DNA of 64,000 nt from a virus (Duplodnaviria; Caudoviricetes): the IMG/VR virus record IMGVR_UViG_2523533545_000002, positions 2,718-66,717 of that record, one strand, 5' to 3'. The stretch's first letter is position 1, and each line of letters opens with the position of its first letter. The position numbers and the translations under genes are program-made. The notes below the pieces were generated by a model that saw only the letters and a program-made list of their open reading frames with translations, did not search any database and was not told the origin of the DNA. Positions 40,334 to 62,338 of the stretch are shown piece after piece.

Positions 40334-43300
40334 CACCGCGCCCCTGGGCACCTGGAAGACCGATCGCCGGATGACCATCGAGGAATGGCTGAAGTCCCAA
40401 GCCACGTCCTACGAACGTCGCGAGAGCCCGCCCATCAGCGCCGTGCTGAACGACGAAGTGATAGAGCAAACCAACTGGCACAAGGTCGCCTTCAAGCCTT
40501 CCGACCTGCTTCAGATCTACCGAGAGCCGAAGGGTACCGACCCGTTCTCCATTACCTTCGCCCTGTTCAAAGGCGCCAAGGCGGTGCTCAAGGCGATCAT
40601 GCCCAAGATGCCGGGCATGCCGTCCAGTGCCGGCACCCAGCAGGGTGACCCGCTGATGGATGCCAGCGCTAAGGGTAACAAGGTCAAACTGGGTGATCCG
40701 GTGCGGCAGATCGCCGGCCACCAGAGAACCTATCCGTCTTACCTGGCTCAGCCGCGCCGCGCTTTTTTGGCTCCGCGCGACCAGCGCGTTGAAATGCTTC
40801 TCTATGTCGGTGAGGGTGAGTACGACATCCCTCTGTCCAAGGTAAAGGTCGGTGAAACGCCTTTGATTTCCCTGGGTGCGGACGCAACCTTCACCATCTA
40901 CCCACCAGGTGCTGACCTGTCAGCTGATCCGGCGCACATCAACTGGTTCAACGCGCCAGAGGTTGGGGCCAGCTCCAGTGGTTCTGCAGGCCTTGAGCTG
41001 ACCATGGCCACCGAGCTGACCCGGGCCGCCACAGCCTCGGCGTACCAGTTTGTCGGTGACACGATCAGCATTCCGGTTGGATCGGGCCAGTTCCCGGCCG
41101 ACTGGTCGAATGGCATCATCATCCGTGTGCTTTCGCCTTACAGCTATGAGGTTGTTGACGGCGGCGCCGGGCGCGACATCATCCGCGGCCCGCTTGAAAT
41201 GCTGAGCCCGTCTCCGGGCATGCTCATTGAGGTGGCCGGGTCGAACGCTGGGATGTACGTGGTGCACAGCTTCACTCCGGCGGTACCGGCTGTGCCAGCA
41301 GATCCTGGCTCAGCATCCACACTGACCGGCTCTGCTGCACCGACGCGATACGATTTCAACGTCACGCCTCTCGGGTTCACTCTTTCGCATGCGGGATCGA
41401 CCTACCCGCTGACGCTGAGCACCGCCACAACTGACCTGGCCGGCCTGGTTTCGGCACTGAACGTGCAGCTCACTGGCGTACCGATCCAGGCCCAGCAATC
41501 ATCGGGTGTGGTCCGATTTGTAGAGCTCACCCCTTTCTTCGGCATGCCTATATCGGCATCTGGCGCTTCGACGGTGCTGGGGTCGGCTCCGGTTGGTGTG
41601 ACTGGGACGGCTACGACCGGAGGCACGCCAGCGCAACCGGCGGAGATGACGCTTGATTACGACGGTGGATCACCCGTGGTAGGCCTGGCTATTGGCCAAG
41701 GTCTGGCCACTATCGGTCCGCGCGGCTTGCGCTACCGGATCACGGCCTACAGCGCGAGCCTGTTAGCTGTTGAGCGTCTGAGCTCGTCAGGTTCAACCGA
41801 CGCGGGCTGGCCTGGCTTCAACAGCATGCAGACCGTAAATGGCTTGATCACACTGGACGCATCCAATCTGCAGGGTGGTTACCGAGGTCCAATTGCCTGT
41901 TGCCCAGAAGGCGAGAAGATCACGGAGATTGAGTGGTCTGTCACTTATGCCAATGGCCTGGCTGGCATCGGTCGAGAGGGCCAGATTTACGAGATCCCGA
42001 CCTACTACGTCTTCGAGTACCGCGACATGGATGTAGCTGGGGCCTGGATCGTAATCGAAAAGATGAACGTGGGCGGTTCACTGGATGCCCAGGGCTTCAC
42101 GGAAAGGGTGGTGCTGCCTTACCCGATGCGTGCCGAGGCCAGGATTCGCAAGCAGTACGTCGACCGGCCGGGCCGAATCAACGACGAAGCTCGAGACGAC
42201 GCGACATGGACCGACCTGCGCGGCCGGATGCAGAGCTCGCCAACCAGCTATACCGGCTTGACGGTTATGACCTGCAACATTCGTGGCGGTGATCGGCTGT
42301 CAGCGCAGTCGGAGAGCCAGGTCAGCGCCGAGGCCACACGAATCCTGCCGCTCATGGAAGGGGGCAAAGGTCCCACCAGAGACATCGTGCCCTGGTGTAT
42401 CTACCAACTGAAGCAGCGCGGTTACACCGATGACGATTTGGACTTGCCCGAATGGCAGGCCTTTCACAACGTCTGCGTTTCCCGCGGCGACACCTACGAC
42501 GAGACGCTGGACGCGACGATCACGGTCAAGGACATGATCAACAACGCCCTGGCTTGCGGGTTCGGTGAGTTGGTGGTGTTCCGGGGCCTGTTGCGTCCGG
42601 TGCGTGATGCCGCTCGGGCCGCGTTCGACGTGAGTTACGGCCCGAAGACGCAGACGTACTCGCCGCAGAACATGACCAAGATGCTGAAGATCAGCGGCGC
42701 GATGCCGTCGATCAACGACTTCGACGGCGTGGACATGGAGTACTTCTCCCGCGAGACATGGGCCTGGGAAACGGTCGAGTGCCGCTGGCCGGGCGACCTG
42801 GGCACCAAGGTCGAGAAGATCAAGATGCCAGGGTTCAGCGACAAGACCAGGGCCTGGCGGTTCGGCATGCGCCGGCGCGGGCATCAGAAGTTCCGCACCG
42901 ACGTTTACACCTGGGAAACCGAGATGGACGGCAGCAACAGCGGATACCTGAGTTTTGCAGCCGTTGCCGATGACGCCCCCAAGCGTTGCCAGAGCGCGAT
43001 CCTTCTGGACTTTGCAGTCACCGGCTCGGGGGCGCTTTTGAGCTCTTCAGAGCCGCTGGACTTCAGCGCCGGGGGCGAGCACTTGATCGGCGTGCGCAAG
43101 CTGGATGGCACGCTGTCGGGCCCATTCACCGCTACGCAAGTCGATCAGTACACCGTCAGAGTTGACGCGCTCGACTTCACGCCGGAAGTCGACGGCCCGC
43201 TGGAGCCGCCGCACATCCTGTTCGGCCCGAGCACCCGCTGGGCCTATCCGACGCTGATCACTAGCTCTGACCCAGCCAACGGCAACGTCGCCATGAAGGG

Positions 43301-43355
43301 CATGCCCTACGACGCCCGCGTTTACACCTACGACGACCAATTCCCGCCGGCCTGA
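40302..43355 (+). CDS. Tail tip / central tail protein (lambda I+J-like)
   Basis: About 1017 aa from GTG at 40302; GDPVRQIAG, LRPVRD, DGVDMEY; last phage gene before the satellite. Confidence 0.85.
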   Translation: MIEFYPNKLSDTAPLGTWKTDRRMTIEEWLKSQATSYERRESPPISAVLNDEVIEQTNWHKVAFKPSDLLQIYREPKGTDPFSITFALFKGAKAVLKAIMPKMPGMPSSAGTQQGDPLMDASAKGNKVKLGDPVRQIAGHQRTYPSYLAQPRRAFLAPRDQRVEMLLYVGEGEYDIPLSKVKVGETPLISLGADATFTIYPPGADLSADPAHINWFNAPEVGASSSGSAGLELTMATELTRAATASAYQFVGDTISIPVGSGQFPADWSNGIIIRVLSPYSYEVVDGGAGRDIIRGPLEMLSPSPGMLIEVAGSNAGMYVVHSFTPAVPAVPADPGSASTLTGSAAPTRYDFNVTPLGFTLSHAGSTYPLTLSTATTDLAGLVSALNVQLTGVPIQAQQSSGVVRFVELTPFFGMPISASGASTVLGSAPVGVTGTATTGGTPAQPAEMTLDYDGGSPVVGLAIGQGLATIGPRGLRYRITAYSASLLAVERLSSSGSTDAGWPGFNSMQTVNGLITLDASNLQGGYRGPIACCPEGEKITEIEWSVTYANGLAGIGREGQIYEIPTYYVFEYRDMDVAGAWIVIEKMNVGGSLDAQGFTERVVLPYPMRAEARIRKQYVDRPGRINDEARDDATWTDLRGRMQSSPTSYTGLTVMTCNIRGGDRLSAQSESQVSAEATRILPLMEGGKGPTRDIVPWCIYQLKQRGYTDDDLDLPEWQAFHNVCVSRGDTYDETLDATITVKDMINNALACGFGELVVFRGLLRPVRDAARAAFDVSYGPKTQTYSPQNMTKMLKISGAMPSINDFDGVDMEYFSRETWAWETVECRWPGDLGTKVEKIKMPGFSDKTRAWRFGMRRRGHQKFRTDVYTWETEMDGSNSGYLSFAAVADDAPKRCQSAILLDFAVTGSGALLSSSEPLDFSAGGEHLIGVRKLDGTLSGPFTATQVDQYTVRVDALDFTPEVDGPLEPPHILFGPSTRWAYPTLITSSDPANGNVAMKGMPYDARVYTYDDQFPPA

Positions 43356-43374: not shown

Positions 43375-43389
43375 CCCGCCTTGTGCGGG
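43375..43389 (+). repeat. Satellite att core (left copy) CCCGCCTTGTGCGGG
   Basis: Identical to 55919-55933; 20 bp after the tail-tip stop codon. Confidence 0.9.
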
Positions 43390-43445
43390 TTTTTGTTTAA
43401 CGTAACTATATGTTTTATATGAATTAAAATTATGCATATGGCGTT

Positions 43446-43467
43446 AGCCCCACACTGAGCCCCACAC
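43446..43467 (+). repeat. Arm-type integrase binding sites AGCCCCACAC x2
   Basis: 43446-55 and 43458-67; the same tandem occurs at 55783-55803. Confidence 0.8.
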
Positions 43468-43989
43468 GGATTGCTTGCGTGAAGGGCTGATGGTTTGCAA
43501 GCAGGTGGCAGTGCCCACCTAACTGCACGCCAGCCACCAAGCTGTACCGTGTAACTGCCCCGCAGGCATGCTGTAGCGGCCCTGTTGGCCGCGCAGGTGG
43601 CTACCCCCAACCTTTTTGCGGCGCTTAGGGCCCTAGCCCCACGCGGCCATCCATAGCCCCAAGTGCCCCCCCCCCCCGTAAAGTAAAATACGGTGGGGTG
43701 CTGTGCAGGTCTGTAAGCATCCACGAAAAATTTGTGTTTCTAAGGTGCATGGTGCTACGCCGCTTCCTTCCTGCGAAATTGCAATCCACTTGCTCATCCA
43801 TTTGCATTCAACCTGATCAGTCATTTTCATCTGACCACTGGTCACGTCGGGAATTGTTCCCTGACGCGCCACGTATAACAGCCATGCTATAAAATGGCTT
43901 TCGCCGACTGGCAGTAAATTAAGCTTTGTGCATAGATGAACGTCGGCAGCTACAGGGAATGACAAGTTATTTTGGCGTTGGGGTAGTTA

Positions 43990-45213
43990 ATGAGATTGAA
44001 AAAAACCACAGAGGAGTTCATCCGAGACGGAGTAGCGGTTCACGGAAATCGTTATGATTACTCAAAAGTAAAGTATGTGAGCAACAGAAAGAAAGTAGTG
44101 ATTATCTGCAAAAAGCATGGGGGGTTTGAGCAAACCCCAGCAAATCATTTGTATTTTGGGTGCAAGCTCTGTGGCTTTGAAAATGCAGGGAAGTACCATA
44201 AAAAAGACACCGAAAAATTCATAGCGGCTGCGAAAGTGGTCCACGGCAGTAAATATGACTACTCTGTTACCAAATACATTGGCGCCAGAAATTCGCTAAC
44301 TATAATTTGCTCTATACATGGAGAGTTTGAACAGACTGCCGGTGTGCATTTAAGCGGTGCCGGTTGTGAGCCTTGTTCCTACTCGATGCGTGGTAAGCAG
44401 GCACGTATGACATTTGAAGACTTCGTTGACCGAGCAGTTAAGCTTCACGACGGTCGCTATGAATACACGCTTTCGAAGGATTACTTCCAAGGTACTGCTA
44501 CCAAAATTCAAATAGTCTGCCCTGAGCATGGGATATTTGAACAATTGCCTAGCGGACATCTTCAAGGTGGCGGATGCCCCCTGTGCGCTGTAATCAGGAC
44601 AGGCAATTCCATGCGGAAAACGACTGAGTCCTTCATCGAAGATGCGCGTGCAGTCCACGGAATTGCCTACGACTACTCGGAGACTGACTATAAGGGAGCA
44701 TTTGACCGGGTAACGATCATCTGCCCGATAGATGGGGCTTTCAACCAAAGCCCAACTGGCCACCTTGGCGGCACAGGGTGCCCAAAATGCAGTCGGCGCG
44801 CTCAGGGAGCACCTAGAAATCTTGTTCGCGCATTTCGCGGCGAGTTCGATCAACCAAGGAAGGCATTTGTATATATGATCCGCTTCCGCCTTCTATGCAG
44901 TAATACTCCAATTTTCAAAGTTGGGAGCGGCTCTGGTTCGCGTATGAAAACGGTATTGGGCAGCATAAATCGTATCGGTGGCACTGAAGTAGAAATCACG
45001 AGCATCAGTTTCAACACAAGTGGAGAGGCTATTGTGTTCGAGCACATTGCCCACGACCAGATCAGGGCGCACCAGTTCGCCGTCCCGATCGAGTTCAAAT
45101 TTCCTGGCTACTCTGAGGTGTTTTCTAAAGCCCCAGATTTTTCAGCAGTCGAAAAACACTTTGACCTTGAAAGGTTTCGATCTGGAGAACGCTGGGATCC
45201 AAGGAAAAGATAG
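43990..45213 (+). CDS. Four Zn-finger (CapR-homology-like) repeats + GIY-YIG/T5orf172-like C-terminal domain
   Basis: Four ~68-aa repeats HG..YDYS..Y....I.C..HG.F.Q....H..G.GC..C; C-terminal FVYMIRF...FKVG...R...EA..FE...H...GYSEVF. Confidence 0.75.
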   Translation: MRLKKTTEEFIRDGVAVHGNRYDYSKVKYVSNRKKVVIICKKHGGFEQTPANHLYFGCKLCGFENAGKYHKKDTEKFIAAAKVVHGSKYDYSVTKYIGARNSLTIICSIHGEFEQTAGVHLSGAGCEPCSYSMRGKQARMTFEDFVDRAVKLHDGRYEYTLSKDYFQGTATKIQIVCPEHGIFEQLPSGHLQGGGCPLCAVIRTGNSMRKTTESFIEDARAVHGIAYDYSETDYKGAFDRVTIICPIDGAFNQSPTGHLGGTGCPKCSRRAQGAPRNLVRAFRGEFDQPRKAFVYMIRFRLLCSNTPIFKVGSGSGSRMKTVLGSINRIGGTEVEITSISFNTSGEAIVFEHIAHDQIRAHQFAVPIEFKFPGYSEVFSKAPDFSAVEKHFDLERFRSGERWDPRKR

Positions 45214-45454
45214 CGAACCACGCTACTTAGAAACAGCGAAAATTGGACAGAAAAATTCTCTGAAAGACTCGTTTGAGTCGAATTAGGACTTCCGTCGAGC
45301 CTAACGCAAGTATAAAGCAAGAGCCCCCACCTCACCACTGGGCCGGTTTTTTGACACAATTGATCGTACGGGCGAAGCAGCGCGGCGATCCGGGCTGGCT
45401 GTCGAATACGACATTGAAATTAACTATTAATAGTTTTCGTAGGTTTTGATTCAC

Positions 45455-45477
45455 TAGCTCGCTTTTAAAGCGAGCTA
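45455..45477. terminator. Perfect 11-bp inverted repeat between convergent cargo genes
   Basis: TAGCTCGCTTT-T-AAAGCGAGCTA. Confidence 0.45.
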
Positions 45478-45529
45478 AGTATTGGTGCGCGATGCGAATG
45501 GAGTGAGTTATCTAGAACGCTACCGCGCC

Positions 45530-46249
45530 TCAGTTTATAATATCCAGATTCGAAAAGTCACGTTCTAAACTTCTGATCGCTAAGCGCTCGCCTCCAGAGT
45601 CATTAGCGCAATAGTTATAGTAATCCAGAAGCCAGCGCATCTTTTCTAAAACTGTCTCGTGCGAAGATGCATTGTTCTGAATATAGTCCCGGACAAATGG
45701 TTTTAGATCATCTAATTCCTCGCCCATAAAATAGTGAACAAACGCCGAGTTATCCCGATCACGAAAAACTAACGCTCGAACTCCATCTCTGATTCCCTCG
45801 TCGGCGTCAATATGATGCCAGGCAAAATTAAGTACATCATCATTGATGACTATTCTAGGAAACTTTGCGACTTTACTTTCCAAGTGGTAGGCGTTTATCA
45901 GGGCTTGAGAGAACGTCACTCGCTCGTTTGAAAAGTGCTTGCCAAATGCAATGCCACCCCTTACTAAAATATTTCGTTTAAGAAATAACTTCTGCATTGA
46001 TGCCGCGATACCAAGCAGTCCCACCACATTGGATGGGGTAAGTCCAGCTTCCACTATTATCGAGTCAGAGAACATTTTTACATCGCAGCCACTGCCTGCG
46101 GCGCTCCCCGCTACTTCTTCAAAAACCTCTAAGAAAATTGGAAGAAATTTTGGGATTTTACCTTTTGAATCTTCCTCCACCATAGAAGAAAATCCAAGAA
46201 TATCGATAAAAGCGACTAGCCCATAGTCTAAGCTTGCGATTGTCGTCAT
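45530..46249 (-). CDS. Class III nucleotidyl (adenylate/guanylate) cyclase-like protein
   Basis: AFIDILGFS (first metal Asp), FSDS (second Asp), VRGGIAFG, ALINAYHLES...FPRIVI. Confidence 0.72.
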   Translation of the reverse strand: MTTIASLDYGLVAFIDILGFSSMVEEDSKGKIPKFLPIFLEVFEEVAGSAAGSGCDVKMFSDSIIVEAGLTPSNVVGLLGIAASMQKLFLKRNILVRGGIAFGKHFSNERVTFSQALINAYHLESKVAKFPRIVINDDVLNFAWHHIDADEGIRDGVRALVFRDRDNSAFVHYFMGEELDDLKPFVRDYIQNNASSHETVLEKMRWLLDYYNYCANDSGGERLAIRSLERDFSNLDIIN

Positions 46250-47289
46250 TTGGCTACCTCAGCCAATTCAAAAAATAGATCTTTGAAAGTTTGCATCGCT
46301 TCACTACGTTGATCCCAAACACTTCCGCCCCAACCCGTTTGTTCACGAGTTAATTTCCAGACGGGAGTTCCCCACGTCAACATCATCGGCGCCAAACTAG
46401 CAAATTCCGCGATTTCAGCGACTGTGGGGTTCTTCCAACAGGCTTCGGAAACAGTAGCTTTATCGCCTGATGCTGCCACCAAAGATGGCATTAAATCAGA
46501 CATTACACGCTGAGGAATTAACTTCATCCAATGATCAAAAGCTGGCTTAGGAGACCCGCCATACTTTTGAAATCTTTGAACTATTACTCCGCGAAATTCC
46601 GGCTTACCATGCGCCACATTTAGCGATAATTTTTTGAAATCCTCGACTATAGCTGCGTGTTCAGAAATCCATTTTCCGATAATTTGAGATAGTGAACCTA
46701 TAGCTTGGTAATTAAATCTGTCTGGGAAAACAGGAACCATGAAAACATCAGCGGCTAGGAAGCATGCCCGAGTTAAAGCGCCAGCACTTGGCCCCACATC
46801 GACAAGAATGTGACTAAACCCATATTTTTCACCTAGGCGCCGGAGCATGTCATTAATTGCTACATAGTTGCGCTTCTGATGCAAATCATTTGTCGTTCGC
46901 ATGCTGTGCGCTTGCGACAATGTATCTTCGGAGTCACTTAAAGCGATATCTCCTCGAAACAAAAATACATTTTCAGTGGCGCCATTAACTGGAAGTAATT
47001 CTATCCCATCCACATCAACCGTTGAGCGATCACCAATGAATCGAGGGCTTAGTGCCTCTAATATAGTGGTGCCAGGGAGTGGATATTCTCGACCTTCCTT
47101 TTCCGACTTTATATCTAGTTTCTCAATCAGTTGAGACAAGGCGAGTTCGGTTAAATTGCACTGCGGATCAGCGTCAACCATTAAAACTTTGGTATTAAAT
47201 TTCTCGGCTATAGCATGCGCCAAATTGAAAGTCGTTGTGGTCTTAGAAACGCCGCCTTTATGATTGTAAAGCGTTACAATCTTTGTCAT
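46246..47289 (-). CDS. Orphan long ParA/Soj-family ATPase
   Basis: NHKGGVSKTTT deviant Walker A, VDADPQCNLT, ILVDVGPS; no parB; ATGA overlap with the cyclase gene. Confidence 0.9.
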   Translation of the reverse strand: MTKIVTLYNHKGGVSKTTTTFNLAHAIAEKFNTKVLMVDADPQCNLTELALSQLIEKLDIKSEKEGREYPLPGTTILEALSPRFIGDRSTVDVDGIELLPVNGATENVFLFRGDIALSDSEDTLSQAHSMRTTNDLHQKRNYVAINDMLRRLGEKYGFSHILVDVGPSAGALTRACFLAADVFMVPVFPDRFNYQAIGSLSQIIGKWISEHAAIVEDFKKLSLNVAHGKPEFRGVIVQRFQKYGGSPKPAFDHWMKLIPQRVMSDLMPSLVAASGDKATVSEACWKNPTVAEIAEFASLAPMMLTWGTPVWKLTREQTGWGGSVWDQRSEAMQTFKDLFFELAEVAK

Positions 47290-47631
47290 TTTAAATGTCC
47301 ATCCCTGATGCCTGTGGATTTATAAACCATTTTTGTTGCGGTAAATCGAGCCATCGGCTGTGCCTTTCGCAACGCCCCTCACGATAGCGCAGCGCCACTA
47401 CGCCCGTCCATTACCACTTTTGGACGCCCGCAGATGCATTTGAAGCCCAAGGCAGCTATGGCGAGTAAGACAAGGACTCTCTTGATGATCTCCTGCTATA
47501 TTGTCCCAGGTCAATGCGACATCAGCTCAATGAATATAGGCTGATCTCAGCCGGTTCTGATCTGATGTGACTATCCCATTCCGCTTTGGCGAGGCTAAGC
47601 ATCCGATCTTTCGACAGGAGGTGGGGTCGTC

Positions 47632-48861
47632 ATGAAGCTTAAAGTCGCGCTGCTGGTGTTTGTACTGGCTCTGTTTCAGCCACTGGCGCTTGCTGCTGTG
47701 AATGTTGAAGTGCTTATTGAGAAAGCCAAGCAGGGAGACCTATCAGCAATGAAGATGCTTTCTGAATACTGCTCGGAATTTGGTGGCGGCGATAGCAATG
47801 AATGCCAATTTAAAGCGAAAGATATTCCTCAGTTAAAGGATTTTGCTGAAAAGGGAAACTCCGATGCACAACTCTTAATGAGCACGATATATTTAACTGG
47901 CAAAAATGGCGTTCTAGCTGATCAAAATCAAGGAATATCATGGCTTCAGAAATCAGCAGAACAAGGTAATGCAATAGGGCAGTCTTTTCTTGGAATGGTA
48001 TATGGTTCTGGGCAGTTTGGTTTTCCTGTGGACTCCGAGCTCGGAAGAGTCTTGCTTAATAAATCGATCGATCAAGGTAGCAGTTCAGGGATGTTTTTTC
48101 TTGGGTTACTGGAGTTAATGGAACAAAAAGACCAGGAAAAAGGCTTAGAAAAAAGCTTCGCATTGATTCAACAAGCTGCCGAGAAAGGTCTTCCTATTGC
48201 TCAGGTAATGGTGGGGACTATTTATTTAGACGGTGCTTCAGATTTCCCGAAGAATACTGAGAGGGGAATTTACTGGTTAACTAAAGCGGCTGATCAACAG
48301 GACAGCACTGCCTTTATTAAGCTGGGTTCATTGTACCTTGATGGCAGAGAAGGCGTGCCAGTTGAACGATTAAAAGGTGAAGCTTTGATACGTAAAGCTG
48401 CCGAAAGAGGTAATGCTTCAGCACAGATCGAGCTTGGAGATAGGCTTCTCGTAGGCAGAGGGTTAAATACCGACCCTACTCAGGCATTCTCCTGGTACCT
48501 GAAGGCCGCTAAAAATGGAAACGCAAAGGGACAATTCAGTCTTGCCGAGCTCTACTTTGACGGAGTAGGCACTACCCAAGATTATAAGGCGGCTGCGAGT
48601 TGGTACCGAAAATCTGCTGAGCAAGCTAATGAGAGAGCTATCTATAAACTTGCTAATTGCTACGCTTCTGGTTCTGGTGTGCAGCAAGACTACAAGCTAG
48701 CCTACGCTTGGGCACCTTTCGGCGCTGCTATAGATACATATGGATATGGCGGCTTCGCGAGTAAGCGTGACGAGTTTGCTAAAAAATTGTCACCTGCAAA
48801 ACTGGCGAAAGCTCAAGAGTTAGCAGGCGATTACCTTGAGAAATACAAGCCAGCCAAATAG
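47632..48861 (+). CDS. Exported Sel1-repeat protein
   Basis: Signal peptide followed by many AQ..LG..Y..G.G...D...A..W..KAAEQG repeats. Confidence 0.9.
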   Translation: MKLKVALLVFVLALFQPLALAAVNVEVLIEKAKQGDLSAMKMLSEYCSEFGGGDSNECQFKAKDIPQLKDFAEKGNSDAQLLMSTIYLTGKNGVLADQNQGISWLQKSAEQGNAIGQSFLGMVYGSGQFGFPVDSELGRVLLNKSIDQGSSSGMFFLGLLELMEQKDQEKGLEKSFALIQQAAEKGLPIAQVMVGTIYLDGASDFPKNTERGIYWLTKAADQQDSTAFIKLGSLYLDGREGVPVERLKGEALIRKAAERGNASAQIELGDRLLVGRGLNTDPTQAFSWYLKAAKNGNAKGQFSLAELYFDGVGTTQDYKAAASWYRKSAEQANERAIYKLANCYASGSGVQQDYKLAYAWAPFGAAIDTYGYGGFASKRDEFAKKLSPAKLAKAQELAGDYLEKYKPAK

Positions 48862-48983
48862 CAGTGCGCGGTTGCGTCATCAATGGATAACTTGGTCTTT
48901 GTTCGCAAGGAATGCGAATTGCGGGAAATGTATATTCACGTTAGAGACGGGGGCGGCCGTTTATTTAATCACAGGAATCAGCT

Positions 48984-49286
48984 ATGAATGAAGATGAGGA
49001 GAGGGGTTTCCGGAAAGGTGTAGCATACGGGGCCACAATTGCTAGTGGAGTTGCCATAGCGATCGCGCTCTACATTGCGCCTAAGCCGACATTCATCGTT
49101 ATCGCGTGTTGTCTTGTTCTAGCTGGCATCGGCTGGGTGGTCTTGTGGTTGGGAGAGAAATACGAATTCGCTGATGATCAACGCCGTGCGCGTTATGACC
49201 GGATTTGGAAAGTGGTTGGCTACATTACTACCTACGGGCTGATGGCATTTTTGCTTTGGTCTTTCCTGAAAACAGGGCATCTTTAG
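48984..49286 (+). CDS. Small multi-TM membrane protein
   Basis: 100 aa, three hydrophobic segments, AGGA RBS. Confidence 0.7.
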   Translation: MNEDEERGFRKGVAYGATIASGVAIAIALYIAPKPTFIVIACCLVLAGIGWVVLWLGEKYEFADDQRRARYDRIWKVVGYITTYGLMAFLLWSFLKTGHL

Positions 49287-49432
49287 TAAAAATCCTGAGT
49301 GCCGCGGCTTCTTTTCGGGAGTGGGCTTGCATGATGAGTCTTTCGGTGAAAGCACGGAGCGACTCGAAAGCACCCCAATACCTCAATATTGCTAGGCGGT
49401 GATGTCAATAGATGGACGCCGAGGAAGTCTCA

Positions 49433-49828
49433 ATGAAAAAATTATGCATGTTTATCGCTCTCTTCTTATTACTGTGCGCCAAAGCAAGTGCGGAATGGCA
49501 GTCAGTACCTGTAGACTCTATTGAGCGGGCTTTTTTTGTCGAAAATAGTACGATAAAGAAATCACAAAATTTACTTAAACTCTGGATTTTGACTAATTAT
49601 TCATCTCCCCAGCAAGTTGGCAACGATCCAGCGTATCTATCCGAAAAGTATTTCTACGAGATTGACTGTCGTGAAAATAAACTGAGAATGGTGCAGGGTG
49701 CCTTGTACAAAAATATAAACGGAGGGGGTAGTATTATTCATACGGAAAACAGAGCGGGAGAGTGGAGTTTCGTCGTGCCGGGATCAACATACGAAGTGGT
49801 AATCAGTTACATATGCAAAAACATGTAA
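49433..49828 (+). CDS. Exported protein (surface-adhesin E-like)
   Basis: Signal peptide ending ASA-EW; EIDCRENK, WSFVVPGSTYEVVISYIC. Confidence 0.7.
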   Translation: MKKLCMFIALFLLLCAKASAEWQSVPVDSIERAFFVENSTIKKSQNLLKLWILTNYSSPQQVGNDPAYLSEKYFYEIDCRENKLRMVQGALYKNINGGGSIIHTENRAGEWSFVVPGSTYEVVISYICKNM

Positions 49829-49978
49829 TGGTTCGACGTTATCTGCACAGACCAAGCAGGTAAACTCACTATCCAGCGTAAAAAACTCCGTTTCAGCTCC
49901 TGCGGGTTAACTTTGTGGGTAACTAAGTATATACAGGCTGCTGGCGCCGCAGCCTGTATATGCCGTGGTAAAATGTGC

Positions 49979-50566
49979 ATGCCGCGCCACCACCAAGGGG
50001 CCGCCATCTTGCATCGCGCAGACCTACCTACACTGGACATCAGAACCTTGCTGCATCAAGGGTTACTGAGGGACTCCACACCCGGAACTTTGAGTTTAAG
50101 TGAGCTTAGATTTAATTGCGTGGCGCCTGACCGCTCAGCACTGTTAGTTAGTTGGGACGGACACCAGCAATCGTTGCCCCTCCGCTGGACCGGCGTACGT
50201 GGCCGTCCTTGCGCGCACCGAGTTAGCTGGTGCTGCCCTCAATGCGGAAAACCTACCTCGCTGCTCTACCTGCTCGAAACTTTCGCCTGCGCCAAGTGCC
50301 ACGGACTGCGCTCTGGGCTCGGTACTGCTGAGCGGTTGCGCAGGGCTAAGGACGCCGTAGCTGTGTTAGAGGCCGCAGCACAAGGCCCCATTGCATTGCT
50401 GGCACTACTAGCGAGTAGGTCTGTCGTGCAATCCTGCGGCCCGATAGCCCCCGTAGTCGAGGCGGCCGGGCGACGTGATGACGAAAGCAGGATCGTGCTC
50501 CAGCAAGCTCAGCGTGAGCAACATCTGGCGGCGATTCGCCGCGCCAAGCGGGAGCAACTGCCATGA
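49979..50566 (+). CDS. Hypothetical Zn-finger protein (satellite core), paralog 1
   Basis: WCCPQCGKPTSLLY...FACAKCHGL; start position uncertain. Confidence 0.6.
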   Translation: MPRHHQGAAILHRADLPTLDIRTLLHQGLLRDSTPGTLSLSELRFNCVAPDRSALLVSWDGHQQSLPLRWTGVRGRPCAHRVSWCCPQCGKPTSLLYLLETFACAKCHGLRSGLGTAERLRRAKDAVAVLEAAAQGPIALLALLASRSVVQSCGPIAPVVEAAGRRDDESRIVLQQAQREQHLAAIRRAKREQLP

Positions 50567-51195
50567 AGATGGGCGAGGTCCCAGCACTGGAGTTGGGTCT
50601 ATTGCGGCGGTTAGGCGGCCTGGAGCTGGGCACCAAGCTGGAACTGGAGGCCGATGGGGTAACTATCGAGACGCTAGCAGTTACTTTCGCGATACTACAG
50701 GTGACGGCTGATGGCGTGGTGCAACAAATTGAAGTCGTGCCAAACAGATGGGGCGGCTACCTGCGCTGCCCTGATTGTTCAGCGCTCCGCACTAAGTTGT
50801 ACATGGTGAATCGGCTGGCGTGCCGATATTGTCATAGGCTAGTGCGTGGCACATCGCACGACGATGTACTAACAGCGCGAATGGAACACCTGCGCCGATT
50901 GCTGCGATGCGGAGATGAGCCGCTGGAACGCATAGCCAGGCCGCCGAAGATGGCGCGAGAGCGGTTCGACGATTTGCTTGGACAACTGCGTAAGACTGAG
51001 TGCGTGGCCGAGGCCGAAGTACGCCGCTGGATGCAACGCCGCAACATACCCCCGTGGATTATAAATACGCTGGCGCCATCAACACGGCGCGGCGTGGCAA
51101 CGGTAGCGTTGCGGATGGACGCGCCAATACGGTGGGATCGTGTAATGCTGGCGCTGGCTGACCTTAATGCAGCAGAGGCGCAGGCAAATAGATAG
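50563..51195 (+). CDS. Hypothetical Zn-finger protein (satellite core), paralog 2
   Basis: GGYLRCPDCSALRTKLY...ACRYCHRL, RPPKMARERFDDL; ATGA-coupled to paralog 1. Confidence 0.7.
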   Translation: MKMGEVPALELGLLRRLGGLELGTKLELEADGVTIETLAVTFAILQVTADGVVQQIEVVPNRWGGYLRCPDCSALRTKLYMVNRLACRYCHRLVRGTSHDDVLTARMEHLRRLLRCGDEPLERIARPPKMARERFDDLLGQLRKTECVAEAEVRRWMQRRNIPPWIINTLAPSTRRGVATVALRMDAPIRWDRVMLALADLNAAEAQANR

Positions 51196-51230
51196 CTCCA
51201 ATGGGTTATTTTTTACCAAAAAGTTTGGGT

Positions 51231-51390
51231 GCGTTACATACCCCCTTATAGGGGGGTATGTGTAACGTAACGCACCAGCGTTACAGGTTGCGTTACAGCT
51301 GTAACGCCCGTGCTAGGGCGGCTGGTGCGGGATTGCGTTACATGCTGCGTTACGGTAACGCAAAAAGGGTTTGTAACGCAGTTTGTAACG
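51231..51390. repeat. Iteron cluster / putative satellite replication origin
   Basis: Eleven GTAACG/CGTTAC hexamers in both orientations plus the CATACCCCC/GGGGGTATG palindrome, at the 3' end of the primase-helicase gene. Confidence 0.8.
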
Positions 51391-51402
51391 CTGCCTATGA
51401 CC

Positions 51403-53445
51403 CTAAAACTTAGGTTTATTACTCGGCCGAGGGCGGTACTCATCCCCTTGGAGCTGGTCCACCTGCCCCCCATCAATCAAGCGTTTAGCTACACTCCTGT
51501 AGCTCTTGATGTCTGCGGCTTTCATGGCGTCATACCACGTAGACTGCTTGATTCGAGCTCGGTCACCACCAGCCTCATCATAGAGCTTTATCAGTATGGC
51601 CAGCGCCTTGTCCCCCTCTCTGTACGAGGCCTTCTCCCCAGCAGCCTGAATGTCCTCTGGGGCGCAAAACTCAATTACCAACGATGTGTTTTCAGCACCA
51701 TCTTCGTTGTATATGCCTAACGGTACCTGCACGGCCTTGAAGTGGAAGCTAAACGGCTCACCGTCCTTCATCTTGCCAGTAGGGCCGTACGTGGTCGCGT
51801 CAACAACCTTCTCTAGTCCTACGCCTATACTGCTTAGTGCCCAAACAAAGTCTGTGTCGTTGTAGAAGTTACTCGCGCCACGCGCGCCCTTGCTGGTTTC
51901 CTTCCCGCTGTGGTGAACAATAAGCGTTGACGCCCCACAGGCTTGACCGCAAAGACGAACGCCCCGCAAACACCTCCCAACGTCGGAGGGGTTGTTTTCA
52001 TCAACACCGCCATTCAGCGCAGCAAAGGTATCGAACATCACCAGTACCGGCTGTAGAGGGGCTAACTGCGCCCCGAGTGCTTTCATGCAACCGTCATCCG
52101 CCAAGTCCACACCAGTGAAGACAATTTCCAAATTGTCGCCAAACGCACCGAGTTTTTTCACCTGCGCCTTCAGGCGGCGAGATATTCCTCCTTGCCCTTC
52201 GCCACATACGTAAACCACTGGCCCGATGCGCCGTACCTTCATAGTGCCAAACGCCTGCCCCGTGCAAATGCTGTGGGCTACACGCAGTGCTAAGAACGAC
52301 TTATAGCTACCAGATGGACCAAACATCAGCCCGTGAGAGTCTGCCTCTAATACGCCATCGATCAGGTAGGTTGCTGGCTTGCAGCTTGCTGCTAGCTCAT
52401 CCCCTTTGAGGAGGGTAAATCTGGTCATGCACTTAGCTGCTGACACACACCTTCTAACAGCATCTGCCCCTTCATGCTGGTGCAAGTCGTTAAAGTCGTC
52501 GCCCGGTTTATTGCAGAACACCGGCACAGCCAGAAGTGCGCGAGCCTCCCTAGCGGCCTTAACTGCGTCTGGGTGCGGCCCGCTACCGTCCTTGAGTAAA
52601 TCAGCCCCAACAACAATCTCAACATTTGGCCAGTGCTTCCGCAGAGCCTTGGCGACATTAAGGAGGTTAGTGCAACTCAACGCGCAGAATACGGGCAAAC
52701 CGGTAGCTTCTAGCACGCTGAGCCCTGTAGCCACCCCTTCTACAATTACCAGCCGCTCATTGACATCTCCCGCCCCCAGCTTTACGAACCCGCCAGTGCG
52801 GGTGCCATGTCCCGGCAATGACGCTTTTCGTCCCTCCCGGTCAATCAGCTCCACGCTGCTCAGCACCAACTTGCCCCCCACCAACTTGTGGATGGGCGCC
52901 AGTAGTAACTCACCTGTTAGCGGCTCGCCACCTGAGTTGGGGGTGTACCCCAACATCCCCTCAGCCGTTGTGGCGCTAACTCCGTGCAGGCCGGCAGCAG
53001 CCACCTGTTTACGCTCCAAGTATGGAATGGCCATTGGTGCTCCAGCGGCCACCAGTCGAGCAGCCAGCTGCGCCGCCTTGGCTTGCTCGTAGTCGATAGC
53101 TTCCTGCTGAGTCTTGCGCTCGGCCCGACGCAGTAGATCCGCCTTGCTGACGCTGTCCCAACCTCCAATATCGATCCACCCGCTCTTACGGGCAATGTGG
53201 AACAGCGTTGCAATGCCAACACCCCCAGACCCAATGCTGCGCCAAGTGCTGGCGAAATCCTTTTCGTTGTAGCTCGCACCCTTTGCGCTCCATTCCTCGC
53301 AGATGTCCCGACCGTCCTCGCCTAACTCGGACTTAACAGCCGCACAGACCTTGAACCACTCACTACGGTCGCAGTCGGGATCAATGCTAGCTAGCGCTGC
53401 CTTGATTTTTTCCATTGGTACTGCGGTGTGCTCGAAAGAGGTCAT
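51403..53445 (-). CDS. Primase-helicase (PriCT-2 + TOPRIM + AAA_25/RepA-like)
   Basis: IDPDCDRSEWFKV...WS, IVEGVATGLS...GAD...DFNDLH, GPSGSYKS Walker A, FDT, IVHHSGK. Confidence 0.9.
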   Translation of the reverse strand: MTSFEHTAVPMEKIKAALASIDPDCDRSEWFKVCAAVKSELGEDGRDICEEWSAKGASYNEKDFASTWRSIGSGGVGIATLFHIARKSGWIDIGGWDSVSKADLLRRAERKTQQEAIDYEQAKAAQLAARLVAAGAPMAIPYLERKQVAAAGLHGVSATTAEGMLGYTPNSGGEPLTGELLLAPIHKLVGGKLVLSSVELIDREGRKASLPGHGTRTGGFVKLGAGDVNERLVIVEGVATGLSVLEATGLPVFCALSCTNLLNVAKALRKHWPNVEIVVGADLLKDGSGPHPDAVKAAREARALLAVPVFCNKPGDDFNDLHQHEGADAVRRCVSAAKCMTRFTLLKGDELAASCKPATYLIDGVLEADSHGLMFGPSGSYKSFLALRVAHSICTGQAFGTMKVRRIGPVVYVCGEGQGGISRRLKAQVKKLGAFGDNLEIVFTGVDLADDGCMKALGAQLAPLQPVLVMFDTFAALNGGVDENNPSDVGRCLRGVRLCGQACGASTLIVHHSGKETSKGARGASNFYNDTDFVWALSSIGVGLEKVVDATTYGPTGKMKDGEPFSFHFKAVQVPLGIYNEDGAENTSLVIEFCAPEDIQAAGEKASYREGDKALAILIKLYDEAGGDRARIKQSTWYDAMKAADIKSYRSVAKRLIDGGQVDQLQGDEYRPRPSNKPKF

Positions 53446-53561
53446 ACACCACCCCACCTGGGCACGGGGGCACGCCGCATAGCCACTCGCTGATCAAGAT
53501 AATGGTCAAGCGAGCCAGCCATGGCAGCCGGTTCTGCCTTGTTTATCGAAAGCTTTTCCAT
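53442..53561 (-). CDS. Small hypothetical protein between alpA and the primase gene
   Basis: 39 aa, overlaps the primase start; GGAG upstream. Confidence 0.35.
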   Translation of the reverse strand: MEKLSINKAEPAAMAGSLDHYLDQRVAMRRAPVPRWGGV

Positions 53562-53681
53562 TGGGTTCTCTCCCGAGAAGCCCAGCCAGCAAAGGGGGGC
53601 GGTGCGTGCAAAGGGGGTGTGAAATTGCAATTGTGTTGTTACGCCCCAAAGCCGCCGACGCCTTAACTGGTCGGCGGTCTT

Positions 53682-53885
53682 TTATTGGGGTTGATCAAGC
53701 TGAGTATTTACCCAGGACTCCACCATCTGGCTGTCCCAGCCGACGGCGCGCAGACCTGCAATTGGCTTCCCCTTGGGGAACTTGCCCTCGGCCATCAATT
53801 CGTAAATTTTAGTGCGACTAAGACCCATAACTTTTTGTAGGTCATGGATGCGTAAAATTGTGCGAGGGAGTGGAGTGGTGTTCAT
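53682..53885 (-). CDS. alpA: AlpA-family regulator / excisionase
   Basis: ILRIHDLQKVMGLSRTKIYELMAEGKFPK...VGWDSQMVESWV. Confidence 0.9.
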   Translation of the reverse strand: MNTTPLPRTILRIHDLQKVMGLSRTKIYELMAEGKFPKGKPIAGLRAVGWDSQMVESWVNTQLDQPQ

Positions 53886-53986
53886 GTTTGGTTGCCCCAA
53901 GTATGGCCACGGGCTGCGGCGTACAGGGCATATGCTGTGCGGTACGGCGGGTTTCAAAAATTACCCAGCCGTGCCGGTAAAGGGGT

Positions 53987-54535
53987 TTACCGTAACGCTT
54001 TGGGGGTTTTAGGAGAGCGGCCTGGATTACTGGCATAGGCTGGCGCAACGGGTTTTATCCACTTTTTGATCCGTTCAAGTGAAGGTAAATCTTCGCGGCC
54101 TTCGCGTTTCAGCACGTCCTTAACTAATCCCGCCATATCCTTAAGTCGAAACTCCTGATCGGTGTCGGCTTGCCATACTTCGGAAGCAAGTGTTCTGGCG
54201 CGATCCTGTACTGTCGCCTTGGCGGCGTTTACTGGTCCCAAAGAGCGCTGGAAGACTTGTTCTGCCTTCTTTTTGTCTACGATATGCGGCACCACCAGCG
54301 TGGCGCCAAGCTTAAAGAAGCAAACTATTACATTGGTCAGCTGCTCTCGCTGTTCATCCGTCAGCGTCTTCGCCAGTGGCGCTATGGAGTCTAATAGCGC
54401 CATCAACTCTTCTCTTCTACTCGGCTCAGTCGCAGGGTTCTCTTCCAAATAAGCCAAGCCCACAAGCAAGCCATATGGCCCCACGAGACCCTTGGTGTCA
54501 GGGAAGTATGCTTTCAATGCTTCAAGCGCATTCAC
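53987..54535 (-). CDS. Hypothetical protein coupled to the integrase, with C-terminal HTH-like segment
   Basis: ATGA overlap with int; LPSLERIKKWIKPVAP. Confidence 0.7.
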   Translation of the reverse strand: MNALEALKAYFPDTKGLVGPYGLLVGLAYLEENPATEPSRREELMALLDSIAPLAKTLTDEQREQLTNVIVCFFKLGATLVVPHIVDKKKAEQVFQRSLGPVNAAKATVQDRARTLASEVWQADTDQEFRLKDMAGLVKDVLKREGREDLPSLERIKKWIKPVAPAYASNPGRSPKTPKALR

Positions 54536-55776
54536 GCTCCACCCCTCCCGAATGTGCCATGCACTACGTTCACCGCTGGCGCGGTAGTGGCGTAGTCAGC
54601 CCATGCTTGCATCAGCTCGCGGCGCTTTTCCAGCAGGTTGCTACGACTGTAGGCGGCCTCTGTCTGGTCGCGTTCATCGTGCGCCAGCGCCAGCTCACAA
54701 ACTTCACGCGGATAGTGGGTGTATTCACTCGCCCATGTGCGGAAGGTGGCGCGGAAGCCGTGGGTAGTTACGTCCGGTAGCCCCATTGTGCGCAGCAGGT
54801 TGAAGGTCGCGCCAATGTGCATGACGCCAGACTTGCTGCCGGTGCCTGGAAACAGATAAGTACTGCCAGCGATGCGCGGGATGGTTCGTAGTAAAGCAAC
54901 TGCTTGTCTTGAAAGTGGAATTGAAAACGGCTGCCGGGTTTTCATGCGTTCGGCAGGTAAGCTCCACGTGGCGGCGTCAAGGTCAAACTCGTCCCAAGTG
55001 GCAAAGCGAACCATTCCAGCGCGAGCGGCAGTCAAAATTAACAATTGCAGCGCATTAGCATCACGCCCCTCCATGGATGCCAGTCTTCCCATGAAAGTCG
55101 GTAGGTCGCGCCAAGCCATCGCTGGATGTTTGGTTTTTTGCCTAGCGCGCTTTTTGTCAGCACGACTTAAAAGGTTGTCCAGGTGGCCACGCCAGCGTGC
55201 AGGATTCTCCCCGGTCCTTAATTTGAGCGTTTTGGCTGCATCCAGCACCCGCTCAATGTGGCCGCGCAACTCATCGGCTGTCGCTGGTTTCGCACTCCAG
55301 ATCGGCTGCAGAGCACGTAGTACATGCTCCGTCTGTACCTGATCAGGTCGCAGCGTGCCCATAGTTGGGAGTGCGTAGCGCTCCATAATTGACAACCAGC
55401 CTTTGCGGCGGCGTTCAGTCAGGTGTTGGCAGTGTGCCGAATGGTAATCCAGCACCAGCGATTTGAAGGTAACGACATTTGCCTTCTCTGCTAGGTGCTG
55501 TTCTTGCTGGCGCTGCTGTTCGGCTCGGCGCTCATCCAAAGGGTCGCAGCCCTTCAGGATCAGGGCCCGTGCTTCAGCGGCGGCCTGTCTTGCTGTTTTG
55601 AGTTTTACCGCTGGATACGGTCCCAAGCCCATATCTCGGCGCTTGCCGTTGAGTTGGTAGCGCAGCAGCCATGACTTGTTGCCCCCGGCCTTGATTACCA
55701 GATAAAGCCCATCACCGTCCGAGTATCTACCCGGCTCGGTTAGGTGCTCGACTTGCTTTGGATTTAGCTCGCTCAT
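54532..55776 (-). CDS. int: P4-like tyrosine integrase (arm-binding domain)
   Basis: YSDGDGLYLVI...W..RY arm domain; TAAR, HGFRATF, LAH, AAYSR catalytic residues. Confidence 0.95.
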   Translation of the reverse strand: MSELNPKQVEHLTEPGRYSDGDGLYLVIKAGGNKSWLLRYQLNGKRRDMGLGPYPAVKLKTARQAAAEARALILKGCDPLDERRAEQQRQQEQHLAEKANVVTFKSLVLDYHSAHCQHLTERRRKGWLSIMERYALPTMGTLRPDQVQTEHVLRALQPIWSAKPATADELRGHIERVLDAAKTLKLRTGENPARWRGHLDNLLSRADKKRARQKTKHPAMAWRDLPTFMGRLASMEGRDANALQLLILTAARAGMVRFATWDEFDLDAATWSLPAERMKTRQPFSIPLSRQAVALLRTIPRIAGSTYLFPGTGSKSGVMHIGATFNLLRTMGLPDVTTHGFRATFRTWASEYTHYPREVCELALAHDERDQTEAAYSRSNLLEKRRELMQAWADYATTAPAVNVVHGTFGRGGA

Positions 55777-55782
55777 TGCAAC

Positions 55783-55803
55783 AGCCCCACACTCAGCCCC
55801 ACA
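55783..55803 (+). repeat. Arm-type integrase binding sites AGCCCCACA(C) x2
   Basis: Same tandem as 43446-43467. Confidence 0.8.
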
Positions 55804-55846
55804 TTTTTACGCGCTTTTAGGCGTACAGCTACATACCGCTACGTAC

Positions 55847-55855
55847 ATTATACCA
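55847..55855 (-). promoter_or_regulatory. Extended -10 promoter for the satellite integrase
   Basis: Minus strand TGG-TATAAT, about 70 bp upstream of int. Confidence 0.55.
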
Positions 55856-55918
55856 CCGTGTAGCCCAGTGTTTGCTGGGGTTGCGCATAATTACGCATTG
55901 CGGCGTACAAATAAAAAA

Positions 55919-55933
55919 CCCGCCTTGTGCGGG
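55919..55933 (+). repeat. Satellite att core (right copy) CCCGCCTTGTGCGGG
   Basis: Identical to 43375-43389; 22 bp before the tail-spike ATG. Confidence 0.9.
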
Positions 55934-55955: not shown

Positions 55956-57776
55956 ATGCGATACAACACCGGAAACCCAGTTGAACCCGATGGCTCTAGT
56001 AGTCCGTTCGACTTGTTCGACAACGCCGGAAATATCGACTTGGCTGCTAACGGTGATGATCCCAACTGGATTGACCGGAAAGGGCGAGCGCGCAAGTCTC
56101 TGAAGGGCATGGAGATTGATTTCCAGAATTTCCTTCTGGCTTCTGGTTACGAATACATCGGCGACTATGACACTGATTCGCCTCTGACCATCCGGCGAGC
56201 GAACCAGGTCTTTTCGAAAGACGGTGAGTACTGGAGGTCAGGCCCATCGCTTAGCCTGCCATTCACTACGACGGGCTCATGGGCTGCTGACGGACCATTG
56301 TTTGTAACAGTCGGCGATGCAGTCCTTCGGCAAACCCTTGCATCCGGTGTCGGCGGTTCAATGATCGGCATTACTGCCGGCTATGAAGGGGCTGAGCCTA
56401 GAGACCTGCAGGCCAAGCTGAACGAAATGCTCAGCGTTGAGGATTTAGGCGCGAAGCCCGCCCCGTTCGATTCAACCCTGGCCTTCGCCAAGGCACTAGC
56501 AACCGGGCGCAGCTTCCAATGCGAAGGCAGCCATTACTACGTAGGCATCACGATTGCTCCCACAGCCGACGGCCAGATGATTTCTGGTAACGGCAAGATG
56601 GGGCAAACGGTAATCGAGAACCCGTACAATTCTAATCCGCTTTACCAGTCCTCAGTTGGCCCAGGCGCTGCGTACAAGCGCCGAATTGGAGTTCGGGATA
56701 TCGAGTTTGTCGGAAACCCAACGACTTTGGGTGGCATGTTGCTGCGCGGGATCATCAGTGATGGCCTGACTGGCGATGCCGACAAGTCGTGCGAGTTCAG
56801 GAACATTAAAGTGCGCGATGTCGGGGCGGGCCCTGCGCTGACCGTTAATGCCTGGTGCAACAACCTGTACAGCATCGAGCTTTGGGACAACTATCAGGGT
56901 CTGAAGCTCGGAGCAGAGGCCAATGCGTTTGGCGCCTATGGTCTGTACATCACCGGTTGCCAGAAAGAGGCAATCGTTCTGCCGCAGGGATCTGGGCAGC
57001 CTTCGGTCATCAACTTCTACAACACCACCTGCCAGTATTCGGGTGGGGATGAGTACATGATCGATATCCGCGATGGATACGCGATCAAGTTCTATGGCCT
57101 TTACCTGGAGGGCAGCCGCGCCCCGCTTGGTCCGATCAACGTCGGCGGCCAGGCAGCTATGGTTGGTTTCGACAACGTCATGCACAACTTGGTTGACGGG
57201 GTTCCAAGCGTCCCGATCATCACCACCAACGTGAAGCACTGCCACGTCAAGGGCATCGTCAACCTAGGTGGCGCAATGGCTTCCTTCGTGAAGATCACCG
57301 GCACCCTGCCTTTCACCCACGTCGAGGGCTATCACGTTGCCGTTGGCTCGGTTGCTACACCCGTGGATGACCAGTCAACCCGCCGTTCGACCATCGTCCA
57401 GAACTGGGATGGTAGCGAGTTCGGCATGACCACCTTCAAGAACCTGGCGGCCCAGCACCTAACAGAATGGAGAACCACCGAGGCCAACACACTCATCATG
57501 TACGTAGACGGAGGTGGCCGGCTGGTGTTCGGCCCGGACGCAACTGCACCAACGCTTTCTAGAGCGGGCGGAACGATGTCGCTCACTTACAGCGCGGGCA
57601 TCGGCACGTTCAGGGCGCCACGATTCGGCATTGGGGCGGACAAGTTGATACTTGATGTTCCCTCGTCACCGGAAGGGGCCTTCGCAGCTCCGCCGGGCTC
57701 CCTTGCCATGTCCAGCAATGGCAAGCAGTACACAAAAGATAACGGCGTCGGCAACATAGGGTGGCTGCAGATATGA
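55956..57776 (+). CDS. Tail spike / putative polysaccharide depolymerase
   Basis: Conserved MRYNTGNPV...GDAVLRQTL virion-anchor N-terminus, then SVEDLGAK..DST.AF and a beta-helix-like G/N/I-rich body. Confidence 0.82.
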   Translation: MRYNTGNPVEPDGSSSPFDLFDNAGNIDLAANGDDPNWIDRKGRARKSLKGMEIDFQNFLLASGYEYIGDYDTDSPLTIRRANQVFSKDGEYWRSGPSLSLPFTTTGSWAADGPLFVTVGDAVLRQTLASGVGGSMIGITAGYEGAEPRDLQAKLNEMLSVEDLGAKPAPFDSTLAFAKALATGRSFQCEGSHYYVGITIAPTADGQMISGNGKMGQTVIENPYNSNPLYQSSVGPGAAYKRRIGVRDIEFVGNPTTLGGMLLRGIISDGLTGDADKSCEFRNIKVRDVGAGPALTVNAWCNNLYSIELWDNYQGLKLGAEANAFGAYGLYITGCQKEAIVLPQGSGQPSVINFYNTTCQYSGGDEYMIDIRDGYAIKFYGLYLEGSRAPLGPINVGGQAAMVGFDNVMHNLVDGVPSVPIITTNVKHCHVKGIVNLGGAMASFVKITGTLPFTHVEGYHVAVGSVATPVDDQSTRRSTIVQNWDGSEFGMTTFKNLAAQHLTEWRTTEANTLIMYVDGGGRLVFGPDATAPTLSRAGGTMSLTYSAGIGTFRAPRFGIGADKLILDVPSSPEGAFAAPPGSLAMSSNGKQYTKDNGVGNIGWLQI

Positions 57777-60893: not shown

Positions 60894-60950
60894 ACGCGGT
60901 AGCGCGTTTCTATATTGGAATGTCGATTGAGTTGAATGCATAGGTGTGGA

Positions 60951-62326: not shown

Positions 62327-62338
62327 TTATTGAAAGCA

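Follow-up and report, generated by a model that had tools for sequence, protein, structure and literature searches.

We describe here a 12,544-bp island that sits inside the late operon of a Pseudomonas prophage, within a 64,000-nucleotide stretch (hereafter, the window) corresponding to positions 2,718 to 66,717 of the IMG/VR virus record IMGVR_UViG_2523533545_000002 (Duplodnaviria; Caudoviricetes). The island spans positions 43375–55933 of the window, has perfect 15-bp direct repeats at its ends and lies between the tail-tip and tail spike genes of a prophage integrated at tRNA-Cys. An earlier interpretation made from the letters and their open reading frames (ORFs) (that is, the sequence-only reading) saw in it a satellite with a dedicated, helper-embedded way of life; on the basis of profile searches and comparisons with related genomes, we consider it probable that the locus represents a secondary-site insertion into the prophage by a self-replicating, integrative genomic island that is at home in the terminator of cysS. 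The Pseudomonas island family to which it belongs combines a P4-type integrase, an AlpA-like protein, a primase–helicase with an iteron origin and two zinc-ribbon proteins private to the family with a swappable cargo of 6 kb.

The island and its host prophage

The repeat (CCCGCCTTGTGCGGG) is present in exactly two copies in the window, as the attL core (43375–43389) and the attR core (55919–55933), and the 5.7-Mb genome that harbours the prophage (G000) has no further exact copy. At attL, the core is also the terminator hairpin CCCGC-CTTGT-GCGGG, which together with the T-run after it is terminator-like; a hairpin of this kind is retained at both junctions and no ORF is broken. Inside each end lies a doubled arm motif, AGCCCCACAC[T/C]GAGCCCCACA, with a 12-nt period (motif sequence GCCCCACA/TGTGGGGC). 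The int-proximal one (55783–55803) is 132–133 bp from the core centre and stops 7 nt short of the int start codon, and the attL-side one (43446–43466) is approximately 74 bp from the core centre, in a conserved non-coding arm region (43390–43758) that also contains a run of about ten C residues (43667–43678), a homopolymer whose length could vary. Direct repeats and matching arm sites at both ends had already been claimed from the sequence, and we find the repeats to be exact and the motifs doubled. A scan of IMG/VR viral contigs returned no match to the arm motif.

Read leftwards from attR on the minus strand, the island encodes int, orf182, an AlpA-like protein and a primase–helicase, followed by iterons, zinc-ribbon ORFs and cargo; this order (int, hypothetical gene, alpA, primase/helicase, origin, cargo) was part of the sequence-only reading and is confirmed by Pfam, PHROGs and the iteron count. 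The integrase (54532–55776, minus strand; 414 amino acids) is a P4-type tyrosine integrase with the Pfam domains Arm-DNA-bind_3, Phage_int_M and Phage_integrase, and keeps all of the catalytic residues R252, K279, H339, R342, H366 and Y376. The backbone gene orf182 (53987–54535, minus strand; 182 amino acids) is conserved in a sibling element of P. putida PSE7 (see below) and had no match in PHROGs, NCBIfam or PADLOC, the libraries searched, Pfam not being among them. The AlpA-like excisionase/regulator (53682–53957, minus strand; 91 amino acids) matches phrog_2790 and phrog_66 ('excisionase and transcriptional regulator'), and the primase–helicase (51403–53457, minus strand; 684 amino acids) contains the Pfam domains PriCT_2, Toprim_3 and AAA_25. 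A putative origin (51231–51391) consists of GCGTTACA iterons in both orientations, with seven of the nine copies in the window falling within this interval and a chance expectation of 1.2 for the entire window.

Reading towards this origin on the plus strand are two zinc-ribbon backbone proteins, orf217 and orf210 (49913–51195), which are conserved in PSE7 and are weak paralogues of one another (pairwise E = 2e-5; common CPxC...C..CH motif), with homologues in only 6 close and 11 remote clusters. Neither of the two gave a family or fold match. For orf210, homologue searches, full HMMER searches and searches of NCBIfam and the ESM Atlas gave no function, its AlphaFold2 model (predicted local distance difference test score 73.6) had no fold match (best Foldseek E = 0.14), and VIA-align gave Z scores of 7.1 or less, with the helical hairpin alone aligned; the two proteins could carry a hijack function. 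Rfam detected no known RNA family within the island and a promoter scan gave counts at chance level. The GC content is 0.456 in the cargo bay, 0.563 in the island backbone and 0.612 in the phage late region. With integrase and arm sites intact, the island is a discrete integrative and replicative element that looks functional.

Both flanks of the island belong to a complete siphovirus-type late operon. Upstream lie genes for the large terminase, portal, head morphogenesis, major head, tail, tape measure and minor tail proteins, ending with the tail-tip protein (40239–43355, plus strand; 1038 amino acids; phrog_469, E = 1.7e-254) directly 5′ of attL; directly 3′ of attR is the tail spike/fibre (55956–57776, plus strand), whose N terminus matches the spikes at empty sites. 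The tail-tip stop codon is 19 nt upstream of the island site and the spike ATG 22 nt downstream of it, both ORFs being whole, which agrees with the earlier claims that the tail genes continue across the element and that the target is an intergenic terminator instead of a coding sequence. The composite prophage measures 65,312 bp between 51-bp repeats of the tRNA-Cys 3′ end (attR at 62279–62329; the partner copy is approximately 3 kb left of the window, with the prophage's own integrase, L157:9275-10288, beside it) and, because this length includes the 12,544-bp island, the phage alone measures 52,768 bp. The composite had been called oversized at over 62 kb against about 50 kb; the excess stands (approximately 24% over the phage genome length, that is, 124%), with the sizes revised to those given here.

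When the tail region was compared by megablast with 50,697 phage records, nothing close was returned; 200 genomes of the genus, however searched for prophages of this type, yielded five related ones. In each of the five a single hairpin terminator follows the stop codon of the tail-tip gene directly, and three (L004, L005 and L008) share the GCCCGGAGA-ATG spike start after the hairpin and a spike N terminus that reads MRYNTGNPV or a relative of it. When the island is removed in silico, the restored junction is colinear with these three empty sites. The hairpin loops differ in all five prophages, the exact 15-mer is found in none (the closest has one mismatch), and the target used by the island is therefore not conserved in the phage lineage.

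Terminator hairpins as integration sites

Close relatives of the integrase are known: clustering at 90% groups 32 sequences, which come from several species of Pseudomonas (P. corrugata, GM33, P. fluorescens and P. umsongensis among the sources, besides metagenome contigs), and a scan of species genomes gave at least two close loci (PSE7 and PH1b) among the matches listed. P. putida PSE7 carries a complete sibling element of 12,574 bp that has the 15-bp repeats and arm motifs of our island, an integrase with 94% protein identity to that of the island, three backbone modules with 78–86% DNA identity and an unrelated cargo of 6 kb. This element occupies the cysS terminator, between cysS/glnS and a sigma-54 activator, that is, in the core chromosome. 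Pseudomonas sp. PH1b has a decayed copy directly beside cysS/glnS in which int is internally deleted; a placement of this copy at a third site after an XRE-like gene was considered and rejected, as the annotation on the far side is the cysS locus. The attL-side arm region of the island has 85% identity to the far end of the PSE7 element and is retained in the PH1b remnant. With the tail-tip protein of the prophage as query, no homologue was found in the PSE7 or PH1b genome. Integrase scans of IMG/VR and of JGI metagenomes gave relatives at 45% identity or less only.

The attachment sites point in the same direction. Among 30 genomes sampled, nine have a cysS terminator of the form ...ACAAACAAAA-CCCGCCTTGTGCGGG-TTTTTGTTT..., in each case unoccupied; the reconstructed attP of the island (...AAAA, core, TTTTTGTTT...) is identical to this cysS-type site over approximately 28 bp. 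The attB of the phage (GAGCATG, core, CTTTTTCATG) has only the 15-mer hairpin in common with attP. The same position downstream of cysS is a hairpin terminator in about one-third of the sampled congeners. In the genome that carries our island, cysS is followed by a palindrome resembling repetitive extragenic palindromic (REP) elements and there is no hairpin (G000:C1:69352-69480; L161:2880-2940); insertion of, or replacement by, REP sequences may remove attachment sites for the island family.

Terminator targeting is a trait of the wider integrase clade. The nearest integrases in 400 genomes of the genus have 54–58% identity, and for all 29 relatives examined (L023–L051) a rho-independent terminator hairpin lies approximately 190 bp away, whereas not one of them is beside a tRNA gene; because all of them adjoin such hairpins, terminator targeting as a peculiarity of this island is ruled out. 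In those relatives where our script located the motif, a doubled arm motif with a 12-nt period is found just upstream of int, 130–142 bp from the hairpin centre. Many of the 54–58% relatives are at the terminator of ppa (inorganic pyrophosphatase), and the commonest target is GCCGGC-CACAA-GCCGGC directly after this gene (for example, L027:721-1284). The 15-mer, for its part, is a generic terminator: 280 of 401 genomes of the genus contain it, in more than 500 copies as against a near-empty reversed control, with heterogeneous flanks and at unrelated terminators (including that of groEL), and all 30 copies sampled are unoccupied. Both tallies (400 genomes for the integrases and 401 for the 15-mer) include the unpublished genomes G099 and G151, and the 15-mer tally also G371, likewise unpublished; without these three the counts shift by at most three, and the loci analysed in detail all come from other genomes. 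The assignment of the genus to Pseudomonas follows the names carried by the matches.

The cargo bay of the island (43990–49828; ~6 kb, GC 0.456) is unrelated to that of PSE7. Its first gene (43990–45213, plus strand) encodes a 407-amino-acid homing-endonuclease-like protein that is approximately 35% identical to GIY-YIG/T5orf172-type proteins, relatives that occur in several copies in lytic phages of Escherichia, Salmonella, Klebsiella and Vibrio; it has no sequence relative among solved structures. We do not call it CapR because its match to the Pfam CapR-homology model is below the curated cut-off (22.9 against 24.2 bits), and its likeness to lytic-phage proteins is suggestive only as a sign of satellite life. 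A two-gene operon on the minus strand (45530–47289) encodes a 239-amino-acid phrog_23933 protein (45530–46249) and a ParA-like AAA_31 ATPase (46246–47289); no ParB was seen, and the pair had only a weak PADLOC match (PDC-M28B, E = 2e-4). The remaining genes, all on the plus strand, encode a Sel1-repeat protein (47632–48861), a small ORF with weak, sub-threshold Pfam matches only (48984–49286) and an Adhesin_E lipoprotein (49412–49828). PADLOC found no known defence system in the cargo and only weak P-loop matches. In PSE7, the slot filled here by these entirely different genes (L052:16514-21211) contains a 412-amino-acid PNP_UDP_1 (phosphorylase-superfamily) protein, a 152-amino-acid ORF and an ORF of ~1000 amino acids with no Pfam match, which together look like a candidate defence system.

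Comparison with satellites and mobile islands

Helper-embedded phage-inducible chromosomal islands (HE-PICIs; Tommasini, Mageeney and Williams 2023, PMC10111431), which were found with an enterobacterial integrase query, insert within late-gene coding sequences at 14 sites and disrupt these, have genes co-oriented with the late genes and belong to an integrase clade with consistent prophage tropism. Similar to these, our island is an int/alpA/primase element of approximately 11–13 kb nested in the late region of a prophage (here the 65,312-bp tRNA-Cys prophage), forms an oversized composite from which excision would restore the phage, and has a doubled arm motif with a 12-nt period and an int-proximal copy approximately 132 bp from the core. 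The HE-PICI attP carries a doubled TGTATTGC motif approximately 81 and 132 bp from its centre, an architecture described as unique to HE-PICIs (PMC10111431), whereas the motif here is GCCCCACA; with this architecture kept under a different motif sequence, doubled-motif arms appear not to be confined to HE-PICIs. In contrast to HE-PICIs, our island is in Pseudomonas, occupies an intergenic terminator with both ORFs whole and has int, alpA and the primase gene on the minus strand of a plus-strand late operon, its siblings are at chromosomal cysS, and its integrase appears to belong to a clade whose closest members are at cysS and whose wider membership is commonly at ppa. For all its HE-PICI look, the locus thus departs from that family in three defining traits, namely insertion into a coding sequence, orientation along the late genes and, as it appears, prophage tropism of the integrase.

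These comparisons bear on the possibility that the island evolved to live in this prophage as its helper, gating the late genes, being induced, replicating in cis, excising and being packaged in phage capsids. [quoted passage not shown] Nevertheless, we regard such an origin as unlikely, given that the siblings are at chromosomal cysS in genomes in which our query found no tail-tip homologue, that attP is closer to the cysS site (~28 bp) than to the phage site (15 bp) and that the hairpin loop differs in all five related prophages examined. Beyond chance 15–17-mers, the island and the phage have no DNA in common, nor any protein similarity or common cos/pac sequence; by contrast, a 258-bp cos region is common to the HE-PICI 11capE and its helper (PMC10111431). 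The antisense orientation of the backbone, the absence of the arm motif from the scanned viral contigs, the generic nature of the 15-mer and the clade-wide use of terminators weaken the helper-embedded part of the sequence-only reading further, and the proposition that this particular prophage is the helper of the island seems to us an improbable one.

Among satellites more broadly, SatelliteFinder (PMC10085698) recognizes five PICI components and requires at least four for Type A or B, with three making a Type C that its authors set aside as possibly other kinds of element. Our island has three of the five (integrase, AlpA regulator and primase–replicase), and none of its ORFs tested against Pfam, PHROGs and NCBIfam is a capsid-morphogenesis or small terminase gene, or indeed any captured late or packaging gene, as the sequence-only reading had noted; it would therefore be Type C. 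It shares with chromosomal gram-negative PICIs an integrase/AlpA/primase–replicase module, a variable accessory region and a site next to conserved housekeeping genes, and with fis PICIs an end in or near a rho-independent terminator, but differs in its AAA_25-type helicase and in having the terminator hairpin itself as the crossover core. No off-target relatives were reported among 2701 fis/hpt PICIs (PMC10111431). With P4 it has in common an integrase with an Arm-DNA-bind_3 domain, AlpA, a primase–helicase and autonomous replication; unlike P4, it has no helper cos site and is not at a tRNA gene, and PHROGs and Pfam gave no match to psu, delta, sid or epsilon among its ORFs.

The low component count also raises the alternative that the island is no satellite at all, but a replicative genomic island moved by generalized or jumbo-phage transduction or by conjugative mobilization, with a position in the prophage that is accidental and inactivating. 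With only three of five PICI core functions and no terS, capsid or cos-like feature, it falls into the Type C set that may hold 'other mobile genetic elements'. The Pseudomonas tmRNA islands I23, I44 and I55 encode int and alpA with a large swappable cargo (PMC12595487), and jumbo-phage transduction has been shown for Pseudomonas int/alpA islands without transfer genes (PMC12595487); the elements named PIMEs, which encode int, alpA and rep together with trbJ, trbL or tra genes (bioRxiv 10.64898/2026.01.12.698999), illustrate that int/alpA/rep elements can be conjugatively mobilized. Our island resembles both groups in its int and alpA genes, swappable cargo, lack of autonomous transfer genes and wide distribution in Pseudomonas. 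However, the attachment site of the I55 class is tmRNA and that of our island the cysS terminator; Pfam, PHROGs and NCBIfam detected no relaxase, traJ, trbJ or trbL-like gene among the island ORFs, so it is not a PIME as defined; and autonomous replication together with AlpA is typical of phage-induced elements. We therefore consider this alternative quite unlikely. A phage-satellite lifestyle of the island is plausible, though less likely than not; that it is a working satellite of a new minimalist Pseudomonas family that this prophage is able to help appears rather doubtful. The locus is best filed as an int/AlpA/primase island of gram-negative bacteria at a secondary site inside a prophage.

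Elsewhere in the window, the left 15 kb contains early genes of the prophage (C5 methylase, single-stranded-DNA-binding protein, ERF recombinase and a cI-like repressor). The spike gene is followed by the endolysin (58379–58999) and two conserved phage ORFs matching phrog_3774 and phrog_3580 (58996–59627). The prophage ends on the right with two moron genes in tandem for O-acetyltransferases of the acyltransferase-3-like type (59748–62063; low GC, ~0.47), candidates for O-antigen modification and superinfection exclusion, and just beyond the prophage attR (62279–62329) is a tail-fibre-assembly-like ORF (62988–63323), which suggests that the remains of a further phage-like element adjoin the tRNA-Cys site.

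A probable off-target insertion and its likely consequences

Taken as an off-target insertion, the locus can be envisioned as follows. The integrase would recombine inside a rho-independent terminator hairpin, with the terminator of cysS as the canonical attB of its subclade. Having entered a cell whose cysS lacked the hairpin, the island would have met the sole perfect 15-bp core in the tail-tip/spike terminator of the tRNA-Cys prophage and used it as a secondary site. Because its normal target is the cysS terminator, the island is probably in the phage by chance.

Several points weigh against this scenario. Genomic context comes from only three members of the close subclade, of which those in PSE7 and PH1b may be partly dependent on each other, and prophage-embedded copies are possible among the ~30 other close integrases. 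The 15-mer stands empty in many genomes, both at cysS and at other places, so that having the sole perfect copy in the cell may explain the choice of the prophage only in part. In addition, the polarity that we propose on the spike and lysis genes is read from gene order.

That polarity would arise from the placement in the late operon, which puts 12.5 kb, much of it genes of opposite orientation, between the late transcript and the spike and endolysin. At the empty sites, the spike starts approximately 20 nt after the hairpin, so that a separate promoter would hardly fit there; spike and endolysin are therefore probably expressed by read-through of the late operon, for which the 12.5 kb of the island would now stand in the way. 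Excision by Int and AlpA would restore the terminator site exactly. Because the spike and endolysin are split from the late transcript and the composite is 24% longer, the prophage is probably crippled for as long as the island has not been excised by Int and AlpA. As the island lies inside the prophage ends, it travels with any prophage excision and replication, in line with the co-excision and co-replication that the sequence-only reading had anticipated.

Drawn from one locus and from sequence comparison only, the significance of these observations would be as follows. Nested elements change what a prophage can do: here the spike and endolysin are split from the late operon, the genome grows by 24% and the island probably has to leave before phage can be produced. 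The comparison also documents an integrase clade that appears to cross over at terminator hairpins of housekeeping genes (cysS and ppa) with an arm geometry previously credited to HE-PICIs alone. Should the prophage prove to be the helper after all, no helper-embedded satellite would have been described before it outside the integrase clade of the enterobacterial HE-PICIs; the island would be placed antisense in an intergenic terminator and gating spike and endolysin until excision, and it would represent an intermediate caught in the act between satellites at chromosomal sites and helper-embedded ones. If, as we consider probable, the insertion was off-target, it would provide a simple route by which a chromosomal island may become a helper-embedded one.

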